Positions 56,673 through 56,787 of a stretch of 64,000 nt of DNA are shown piece by piece. The stretch is taken from the IMG/VR virus record IMGVR_UViG_3300031555_002223; one strand, given 5' to 3'. Within the stretch, counting starts at the first letter, position 1, and every line of letters begins with the position of its first letter. The DNA comes from a virus. Under the pieces are notes generated by a model, which saw nothing but the letters and a program-made list of their open reading frames with translations, was not told where the DNA came from and did not search any database. The translations under genes were made by a program, and so were the position numbers.

Positions 56673-56787
56673 GGGAGATAGGTAGGACTCGAACCTACGA
56701 CACGCGGGTTAACAGCCAAAATCATTGCGGTCACGGCCTTTGTCAAGGCCCATAGTACGCCGCTCTACCGACTGAGCTACTATCTCC
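56673..56787 (-). tRNA. tRNA-Asn (GUU)-like gene carrying a ~40-nt insertion inside the anticodon stem
   Basis: perfect acceptor GGAGATA/TATCTCC, D-arm GCTCAGTCGGTAGAGC, T-arm GTAGG-TTCGAGT-CCTAC, anticodon loop CUGUUAA closed by GCG..GG / CCCGC only if 40 nt (TACTATGGGCCTTGACAAAGGCCGTGACCGCAATGATTTT, internal hairpin GGCCTT-GACA-AAGGCC) are removed between stem positions 29 and 30. Confidence 0.5.

Follow-up and report, generated by a model that had tools for sequence, protein, structure and literature searches.

A 64,000-nucleotide (nt) stretch of viral DNA, IMG/VR record IMGVR_UViG_3300031555_002223 (the window, hereafter), carries on its minus strand a tRNA-Asn-like gene whose anticodon stem is broken by 40 nt, and the question raised by this locus is what such an insertion does inside a gene that otherwise has all the parts of a tRNA. 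An earlier note on this DNA left three options (a small intron of a new type, a mobile insertion, or a tRNA disabled on purpose), and our analysis supports that interpretation in part. The locus is very probably a real tRNA-Asn gene that holds a member of a conserved family of functional RNA elements. The finding is real and larger than had been realised, a sister copy next door, a widespread family and a link to genes for a Ro60-like protein and for RNA repair having gone unseen; it also appears to be undescribed. The element is a candidate for a new kind of tRNA intron or for a tRNA-based Y RNA, and both are weighed below.

The tRNA nature of the gene is clear from the Rfam tRNA model RF00005, which scores it at 46.1 bits (gathering score, 29; E=1.2e-6 for the whole window), with model positions 1-71 matched and a 51-nt insertion replacing 11 central positions of the anticodon arm. 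Read 5′ to 3′, the gene runs GAGAUAG-UA-GCUC-AGUCGGUA-GAGC-G-GCG-(40 nt)-GG-CUGUUAA-CCCGC-GUGUC-GUAGG-UUCGAGU-CCUAC-CUAUCUC-C, so that the acceptor stem, the D arm (GCUC/GAGC), the T arm (GUAGG/CCUAC), the variable loop GUGUC and the loop CUGUUAA with its GUU anticodon are all found, the arms and the anticodon loop as had been claimed. The acceptor stem noticed earlier is present as well, but its register (GGAGATA/TATCTCC) was one base off: the covariance model gives the seven-base-pair (bp) stem GAGAUAG/CUAUCUC, with U8-A9 and the discriminator C73, to which G-1 may additionally pair. The letters that follow the gene at its 3′ side are CCG in the window and CCA in the related locus L364.

Instead of a contiguous 5-bp stem and 7-nt loop, the gene has an anticodon stem split between positions 29 and 30, and GCGGG/CCCGC pairs only after exactly 40 nt are skipped. 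In an exhaustive enumeration of excisions, removal of these 40 nt after position 29 was the sole solution restoring the Asn arm GCGGG-CUGUUAA-CCCGC; a second, arithmetic solution (GGCGG-AUUUUGG-CUGUU, after position 30) matches no tRNA-Asn. The sequence spliced in silico is called by ARAGORN as a tRNA-Asn(gtt) of 75 nt. Its predicted junction is GAGCGGCG joined to GGCUGUUAACC, or in shorter form GAGCGGCG joined to GGCTGTTAACC, and the two junctions of the unspliced 113-nt precursor are GCGGCG followed by TACTATGG and GATTTT followed by GGCTG. Intact genes place the insertion point identically. Annotated tRNA-Asn genes of about 30 Bacillus phages share 90% identity with the 3′ exon, the insert shows up as a clean 40-nt gap when the gene is aligned with the annotated, uninterrupted tRNA-Asn of Bacillus phage Vinny, and the reconstituted anticodon arm is identical to that of the intact phage tRNA-Asn genes L381 and L382. 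The position first given for the insertion, between 29 and 30, is therefore borne out by enumeration and by both comparisons.

The interrupted gene is not called by ARAGORN in its standard mode. The intron mode returned a His-AUG tRNA for the Asn gene and a Leu-AAG tRNA for its neighbour, each with an intron forced to the canonical position, and both calls were rejected for their poor stems. No other, standard tRNA-Asn is visible in the window phage among at least 27 standard tRNAs, which cover 18 amino acids.

The hairpin that had been seen inside the insert, GGCCUU-GACA-AAGGCC, is indeed there, and it does not stand alone. Between the tRNA-Asn gene and a tRNA-Leu, 124 nt are filled by a second tRNA found only with Rfam, which is interrupted by a 44-nt sister element of the same layout, the hairpin AGUCUU-GUUC-AAGACU being followed by GUGA and then CAGCAG. 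A covariance model (R1) scores the 40-nt element at 30.9 bits, the top of the window, and the sister at 29.7 bits, with the next best at 17.5, and finds only these two tRNA-embedded copies in the 64 kb. After excision between 33 and 34, the product of the adjacent gene is most likely an unusual A34 tRNA(AGG); its spliced form is a tRNA-Pro(agg) for ARAGORN, and excision enumeration in its L048 homologue yields the unique arm CCGGC-UUAGGGA-GCCGG. Another A34 tRNA of the window is a tRNA-Ser(AGA) at 61837..61928. Close relatives whose neighbouring protein is identical show a change only in the loop of the Asn insert (GACA to GAUA, in L365), and the polymorphisms of the sister insert in L363 lie in the hairpin, where a compensatory U to C change turns a U·G into a C-G pair, and in the tail.

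Further copies were sought with the neighbouring AAA ATPase as a handle, with an exon/insert junction DNA probe in three collections, with a custom scan, and with ARAGORN run with and without introns. Of the roughly 240 loci given by the 16-mer junction probe, most were chance matches and about 20 were tRNA contexts. The pattern GCAATGAT..GGCTGTTAA matched 41 viral loci, all but one of which were discarded as coding sequence. The one real locus, L003, which comes from a 174-kb viral contig and was reached with a gapped probe, has the same interrupted tRNA-Asn with the insert at the same site and conserved flanks, and the hairpin of its insert differs yet pairs (GGUAUA/UAUACC). Since the proteins of L003 and of the window are only 37-49% identical, conservation of the insert at one site goes well beyond chance. 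Relatives lacking the insert at this locus, which the earlier note had named as a possible refutation, were not found, as L363-L365 and L003 all keep it; intron-less look-alikes of the locus were seen only in unrelated phages.

About 33 distinct copies were recovered in this way from related large phages, in tRNAs of at least 10 anticodon types (reconstituted as GUU, GAU, GGU, UGG, AGG, UAA, GUA, GAA, CUA and others). The site 29/30 is the commonest; other copies lie at 31-33 (L366, Pro-UGG), at 33/34 (the neighbouring gene in the window), at 37/38 (L070, Pro) or in the variable region, as in a tRNA-Ile(GAU) of L048 (13438..13597) whose anticodon arm is intact. A weaker, free-standing copy sits between two tRNAs of L046 (9796..9835), downstream of a TATAAT-like box. 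As one family occupies different positions in many tRNAs, the element must have spread. The mobile-insertion option therefore holds for the history of the family, but not for the Asn copy, which has been inherited vertically across deep divergence.

The anatomy of the family is strict. In a gapless alignment (A4) of the 33 distinct elements, anchored on the motif, C27, G29, C30 and A31 are invariant, and the order is always a 5′ arm, a small loop, a 3′ arm plus spacer of exactly 10 nt, the motif C-N-G-C-A (usually A-CAGCA-A) and a tail of 8-25 nt; the loops mostly start with G (GUUA, GUCA, GACA, GAAA, GUAA). The Asn insert has every feature by which we delimit this hairpin-CNGCA family, that is, the hairpin, the 10-nt register, C-N-G-C-A and the location inside a tRNA gene. 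Across the family the 6-bp hairpin shows 52 double-change cells, against 23.9±3.9 in column shuffles (0 of 500 reach 52), and a covariation score of 0.567, against at most 0.31 with the partners slid. The exons behave in the same manner, with many compensatory changes in the acceptor and T stems among 12 precursors of Asn, Ile and Thr type, with co-variation of positions 31/39 (G-C in Asn, A-U in Ile/Thr), and with reconstituted anticodon loops that are all canonical, of 7 nt with U33 and a purine at 37. Because both the hairpin and the exon stems show compensatory change, the interrupted genes evolve like structured functional RNAs and unlike decaying pseudogenes, and together with the invariant motif these changes speak against the option of a disabled tRNA.

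The family is apparently an undescribed class of small hairpin. No description of such an element was found in the searched literature, the coverage of which was incomplete, so that this is absence of evidence only, and none of the GenBank phages searched by megablast and blastn has the insert. Inspection by eye found no pairing of CAGCAA with the D stem, T loop, leader or tail that holds family-wide. K-turn, C/D-box, hammerhead and HDV-like folds, as well as a sigma-70 promoter reading of the TTGACA at the hairpin loop, were likewise set aside by eye, as none holds across the family.

When the open reading frames (ORFs) of the window were compared locally with all loci, the one singled out encodes a Ro60-like protein, a candidate partner of the element. 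Its product matches PHROGs at E=2.7e-116 ('RNA-binding protein'), and its AlphaFold2 model (pLDDT 78.7) matches Ro60/Rsr/TROVE+vWA structures over the full length, the top 11 Foldseek matches in the PDB being all Ro60/Rsr/TROVE, one of them a phage Ro60. Among the ATPase-anchored loci, homologues occur in 7 of 12 that have the element and in 6 of 68 that lack it (Fisher p=3e-4, for loci not fully dereplicated). In four loci known from the DNA probe only (L045/L126, L151, L178 and L257, from three or four contigs), the Ro60-like gene lies 60-120 nt downstream of the interrupted tRNA; the distance is 2.3 kb in L044 and 8 kb in the window, at the end of the same array. The window also encodes an ATP-dependent RNA ligase, 44% identical to annotated Bacillus phage RNA ligases and with homologues in L003 and L363-L366, besides candidate genes for the healing of RNA ends (Table 1). 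Neither the ligase nor the Ro60-like protein has relatives in the PDB at the sequence level.

Based on these findings, we propose, with a probability of about 0.4, that the 40-nt insert is an intervening sequence whose removal depends on protein and is tied to the Ro60-like/repair system. The Ro60-like (TROVE+vWA) protein would recognise the module in the tRNA precursor, and the module would be cut out by some endonuclease, or by cleavage and trimming, while the acceptor stem and the anticodon-stem pairs 27-29/41-43 would hold both exons together as a nicked duplex; the phage kinase and phosphoesterases would then heal the ends, and the RNA ligase would seal the nick to give a normal tRNA-Asn of 75-76 nt. 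The binding by the Ro60-like protein, the excision and the ligation are steps that we infer. Broken anticodon loops of tRNAs are known to be mended by T4 Pnkp/Rnl1, and ligases of the DraRnl type close nicks in RNA duplexes; the 29/30 break would be a nick in a duplex, which the phage ligase, with the healing enzymes, could plausibly seal. The extension of this proposal to the whole family, in which the hairpin-CAGCAA module would represent a new phage-borne class whose precursors are recognised by the Ro60-like protein and handed to cut-heal-seal repair, is a more tentative suggestion.

Several observations argue for removal of the insert. The loop-located copies (31-33 in L366, 33/34 in the window neighbour, 37/38 in L070) would destroy decoding unless removed, the anticodons are diversified (GUU/GAU/GGU) as in decoding tRNAs, and the loops are canonical in every tRNA type. 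The novel small intron of the earlier note is likewise consistent with all findings, including the odd position, the size of 40 nt, the lack of an Rfam match for the insert and the exons that rebuild a perfect tRNA.

Other observations weigh against removal, or against a link of the family to the Ro60-like protein and the repair genes. The interrupted gene duplicates the anticodon of a standard tRNA of the same locus in 7 of 27 cases, and in 4 of the 8 loci with at least 12 standard tRNAs, Ile-GAU repeatedly; such redundancy is unlike that expected of a sole-copy decoding tRNA and favours a non-decoding role. A pure gap-filling role was accordingly dropped, being unsupported by this anticodon-redundancy test. 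No endonuclease candidate was found, the only nuclease beside the cluster being an HNH DNA homing endonuclease, the splice junctions share no sequence, and no bulge-helix-bulge can be drawn at them. With an insert at 29/30 the anticodon loop stays whole, so that folding does not strictly require removal of the insert. In L367, a Ro60-like protein 72% identical to that of the window accompanies 18 normal tRNAs, with none interrupted within 10 kb, many large phages that have no such inserts carry RNA-repair cassettes, and the association statistics suffer from the incomplete dereplication given above.

The link to the Ro60-like gene and the RNA-repair set opens a second reading, which we hold to be possible though less likely than the intervening sequence: the gene may encode an unspliced, tRNA-scaffolded, Y-RNA-like partner of the Ro60-like protein, with the hairpin and CAGCAA as the protein-binding site and the tRNA body recruiting a tRNA-binding effector, a role already suggested for YrlA Y RNAs of bacteria. 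The YrlA class of bacterial and phage Y RNAs is tRNA-like and encoded beside Ro60 genes (PMC4201824, PMC12135203); Y RNA genes typically adjoin Ro60 genes, the tRNA-like domain of YrlA is joined via the anticodon-stem position (PMC4201824), and in phiLo two Yrl RNAs lie directly upstream of the Ro60 gene (PMC12135203). The partner gene here, a divergent DUF2828-type relative, is predicted to have the Ro60 fold, and in the four probe-found loci the interrupted tRNA is directly upstream of it. The frequent redundancy with a standard isoacceptor, the failure to find a junction signal or an endonuclease candidate and the intact loop beside a 29/30 insert, all of which trouble the intervening sequence, count in favour of a Y-RNA-like product. 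The 5′ exon with the start of the insert (GGUAGAGCGGCGUACUAUG...) also resembles the 3′ half of the YrlA consensus, a resemblance that is not significant.

The likeness to YrlA (RF02553) is thus that of a tRNA-like RNA near a Ro60-fold gene, with a protein-binding module at the place of the anticodon arm and with RNA ligase/repair genes often associated. However, YrlA is circularly permuted, ends in a Ro-binding stem, and has a loop-capped acceptor and no anticodon loop, whereas the RNA of the window has normal tRNA ends, a full anticodon loop and a module that is a closed hairpin, with no 5′/3′ terminal stem beyond the acceptor stem. The YrlA model reaches only 20.0 and 16.8 bits (gathering score, 69), and only by bridging two adjacent tRNAs, with the match confined to tRNA-like parts. 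Further, the canonical loops and the distal pairs 30-31/39-40 are kept in every tRNA type with diversified anticodons, the gene is the only visible tRNA-Asn of the window phage, and the loop and variable-region copies (such as that of L048) lack one shared geometry relative to the tRNA body, none of which suits a Y-RNA-like partner.

Three further readings are minor. One of them, a small ribozyme of a new kind that cleaves or splices itself and whose products, with 2′,3′-cyclic phosphate and 5′-OH ends, are joined by the repair enzymes, is improbable. The cores of small ribozymes typically combine a hairpin with a short, invariant motif at a set distance from it, and the kinase and phosphoesterases fit the needs of such ends, but there was no match to hammerhead, twister, pistol, hatchet, HDV-like or other Rfam ribozymes (E<=10 in 56500..56900; gathering thresholds window-wide), and the core motifs CUGANGA/GAAA are absent. 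In addition, 40 nt would have to direct two precise cleavages, the junction nucleotides are not conserved, leader and tail do not pair, and the fold of the insert is no more stable than that of shuffled sequence (z about -1).

Slightly less probable still is a selfish miniature insertion mobile at the DNA level, by which interrupted spare tRNA genes would be decaying pseudogenes or decoys. The occurrence at several positions, in many tRNAs and once between tRNAs (in L046), the frequent redundancy with intact copies, and the HNH and GIY-YIG homing endonuclease genes scattered through the arrays would all fit it. Against this stand the conservation of the insert and both exons at 37-49% protein identity and the compensatory changes in the hairpin and the exon stems; the Asn copy has neither target-site duplications nor terminal repeats, the two copies in 64 kb are both within tRNAs, and near-identical phages show no presence/absence polymorphism.

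In archaea, introns occur at non-canonical tRNA sites including the anticodon stem, and in Thermoproteales they have transposed among tRNA genes. An archaeal/eukaryal-type intron cut at a bulge-helix-bulge by a splicing endonuclease is nevertheless very improbable here, for all the resemblance in small size (tens of nt), non-canonical position, spread of one family over many tRNA genes and proposed protein-dependent removal and ligation, because the context is that of a bacterial virus (tmRNA, Pol III alpha, DnaB, gyrase; proteins nearest to those of Bacillus and Enterococcus phages), because neither arrangement of a 3-nt bulge, 4-bp helix and 3-nt bulge fits by inspection, the sole tetramer complementary to exon GCGG being CCGC, 9 nt from the 3′ junction, because no EndA/Sen splicing-endonuclease domain occurs among about 45 window proteins scanned, and because the archaeal introns lack a conserved hairpin with C-N-G-C-A at fixed spacing.

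The contention that the position is not canonical stands. For the group I introns of bacterial and phage tRNA genes, the site is in the anticodon loop, 35/36 among others (PMC13011429, PMC3984707). Like the present element, these introns interrupt bacterial-type tRNA genes and hide them from standard tRNA finders, but they are longer than 200 nt, fold into helices P1-P9, and have U at the 5′ splice site and G as the last nucleotide, whereas the Asn insert has 40 nt, lies in the stem, follows G29 and ends in U. At the Asn locus Rfam gave no match except tRNA and YrlA at E<=10, and no Intron_gpI. The group I tRNA-Asn introns of Patescibacteria were considered and are a different thing.

Conserved inserts in phage tRNA genes are also known from the 'enigmatic' introns of Lak megaphages, which are about 93 nt long, tRNA-like and at the canonical loop position (PMC6784885, Table S6); they are without the CAGCAA motif, unlike the 40-nt hairpin element at 29/30. 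The window has an insert of their kind too. In a tRNA-Thr(UGU) at 61334..61504 (minus strand), the loop CUU-GUAA is split between CUU and GUAA by a 96-nt tRNA-like element (61376..61471) that ends in CCA, scores 36.6 bits with the Rfam tRNA model, and has a 19-nt 'anticodon loop' and a 14-nt variable region. After removal of the 96 nt, the tRNA is 75 nt long and called by ARAGORN, which corresponds to the Lak Thr(TGT) type ('intron that may encode a tRNA').

Two other systems resemble the proposed intervening sequence in part. In T4, a phage kinase/phosphatase and RNA ligase also reseal a broken tRNA, but in answer to host anticodon nucleases and not to a built-in insert. The intervening sequences of bacterial 23S rRNA are likewise helical inserts cut from a stable RNA after transcription, but RNase III cuts them out as long duplexes, and the ends are not rejoined.

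To our knowledge, the tRNA introns of bacteria and phages are regarded as group I ribozymes that sit in the anticodon loop, and protein-spliced mini-introns at odd positions are considered an archaeal/eukaryotic trait; a conserved 40-50-nt element that splits the anticodon stem of many phage tRNAs fits neither picture. Because the element is invisible to standard tRNA finders, phage tRNA repertoires are under-counted, the tRNAs missed by standard finding in the window being Asn, the AGG tRNA and Thr-UGU. If the proposed intervening sequence is real, the supply of phage tRNAs would be gated by the phage's own Ro60/ligase system, which would be the first tRNA splicing system of the bacterial world other than group I and would form a functional bridge from Ro60/Y-RNA biology to tRNA maturation. 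It could also explain the targets of the DUF2828 family, of which more than 8000 relatives were found, and of phage RNA-repair cassettes, and could reveal if phages control, shield or repurpose the tRNAs that they encode, for instance in the face of host anticodon nucleases. The genetic link of the element to a Ro60-fold protein and to ligase and kinase genes makes this a concrete and testable system.

Table 1. Positions in the window of the interrupted tRNA genes, their elements and the candidate partner genes.
Feature	Position	Strand	Remarks
Interrupted tRNA-Asn(GUU) gene	56674..56786	-	Position 1 = 56786, discriminator C73 = 56674; Rfam RF00005
5′ exon	56758..56786	-	Acceptor 5′ strand, U8A9, D arm, G26, anticodon-stem 27-29 (GCG); from cmscan alignment and excision enumeration
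40-nt intervening element	56718..56757	-	UACUAUG / GGCCUU-GACA-AAGGCC / GUGA / CCGCAA / UGAUUUU; the tail is U-rich
Element hairpin	56735..56750	-	6 bp, loop GACA; folds in isolation
Motif CCGCAA	56725..56730	-	Local form of C-N-G-C-A (usually ACAGCAA); starts exactly 10 nt past the hairpin loop
3′ exon	56674..56717	-	GG (30-31), CUGUUAA, CCCGC, variable loop GUGUC, T arm, acceptor 3′ strand, C73
Adjacent interrupted tRNA	56549..56668	-	44-nt sister element, encoded CCA; Rfam tRNA 46.9 bits
44-nt sister element	56592..56635	-	Hairpin 56614..56629; motif CAGCAG 56604..56609
Ro60-like (TROVE + vWA) RNA-binding protein gene	47090..48595	-	Pfam DUF2828 + DUF7788; phrog_850; abuts the 3′ end of the tRNA array
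ATP-dependent RNA ligase, candidate sealing enzyme	38219..39502	-	Pfam RNA_ligase 25.5 bits; TIGR02306 RNA_lig_DRB0094 1.7e-9 (weak); phrog_968 3.5e-47
Candidate RNA end-healing genes	34075..35935	-	Phosphoesterase 34075-34644; polynucleotide-kinase-like P-loop kinase 34641-35150; phosphoesterase 35213-35935
Candidate RNA end-healing genes, same set	40960-41769; 41766-42605		Phosphoesterase; RlaP nucleotidyltransferase

The window is part of a large phage genome, with all recognisable genes on the minus strand, among them those for NrdD, Pol III alpha, DnaB, gyrase A and B, DNA ligase, lysins and PhoH, and from 48.6 kb to its end it holds an array of 21 ARAGORN tRNAs and a tmRNA (60197..60535, minus strand; tag DNSYFENHLAA). 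One of its proteins has an identical copy on metagenomic contigs of 146-149 kb, which come from samples such as SAMN15830104, SAMN18817828 and SAMN15829953. Its upstream side is extended by 1.5 kb in L369, the contigs reached by exact protein matches in that direction all being short. No GenBank phage is close at the DNA level. The nearest annotated proteins, at 41-44% identity, are from Bacillus and Enterococcus phages, so that a host among the Bacillota is likely, as judged from sequence similarity.

Next to the Ro60-like gene lies a gene for an MVP-like protein with MVP shoulder and vault repeat domains (44312..46714, minus strand), a pairing that is kept in L363-L365 and is reminiscent of vault/Ro ribonucleoproteins. 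A 1476-codon ORF on the plus strand (44285..48715), antisense to both genes and without a Pfam match, may be a shadow ORF. Not far from the tmRNA, a 51-amino-acid ORF (61029..61184, minus strand) has a weak Pfam match to ArfA, the alternative ribosome-rescue factor, in the precomputed annotation of L369-L373.

The array has other variable features. The HNH homing-endonuclease gene (56877..57284, minus strand) is immediately upstream of the tRNA-Gln/Asn/AGG/Leu cluster, and relatives have PD-(D/E)XK or GIY-YIG genes at places that vary within the array, indicating that genes actively come and go among the tRNAs. The tRNA-Cys at 48648..48734 (minus strand) is 87 nt long with a long variable arm, an allele common to L366, and at the same place L363-L365, with their identical neighbouring protein, have a normal 76-nt tRNA-Cys.

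Over-long tRNA-like genes of other types were also met. In L125, L129, L130, L134, L135, L137, L143, L204 and L257 (751..870), the same tRNA 5′ half and a junction of GCG with UACU are followed by UGUGUCUAGUUU, and five of the eight loci other than L257 hold a complete tRNA-Asp(GUC) and about 150 nt more (six ARAGORN calls, those of L125 and L130 falling in one identical stretch; no call in L129 and L204). This group has a longer and different interruption, possibly nested tRNAs or a larger intron. Three over-long genes found with Rfam only (L001, 7634..7753; L057, 16162..16313; L097, 6080..6187) have inserts without C-N-G-C-A and may represent divergent or unrelated classes; the insert of L057 has AUAGCAA and is 2.5 kb from a Ro60-like gene.

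Finally, a suppressor tRNA with the anticodon CUA (50269..50359, minus strand; 91 nt; 'Pyl' for ARAGORN) is conserved in L363-L368, and L377 also has a tRNA with the anticodon UUA, which suggests recoding of stop codons in this phage group.

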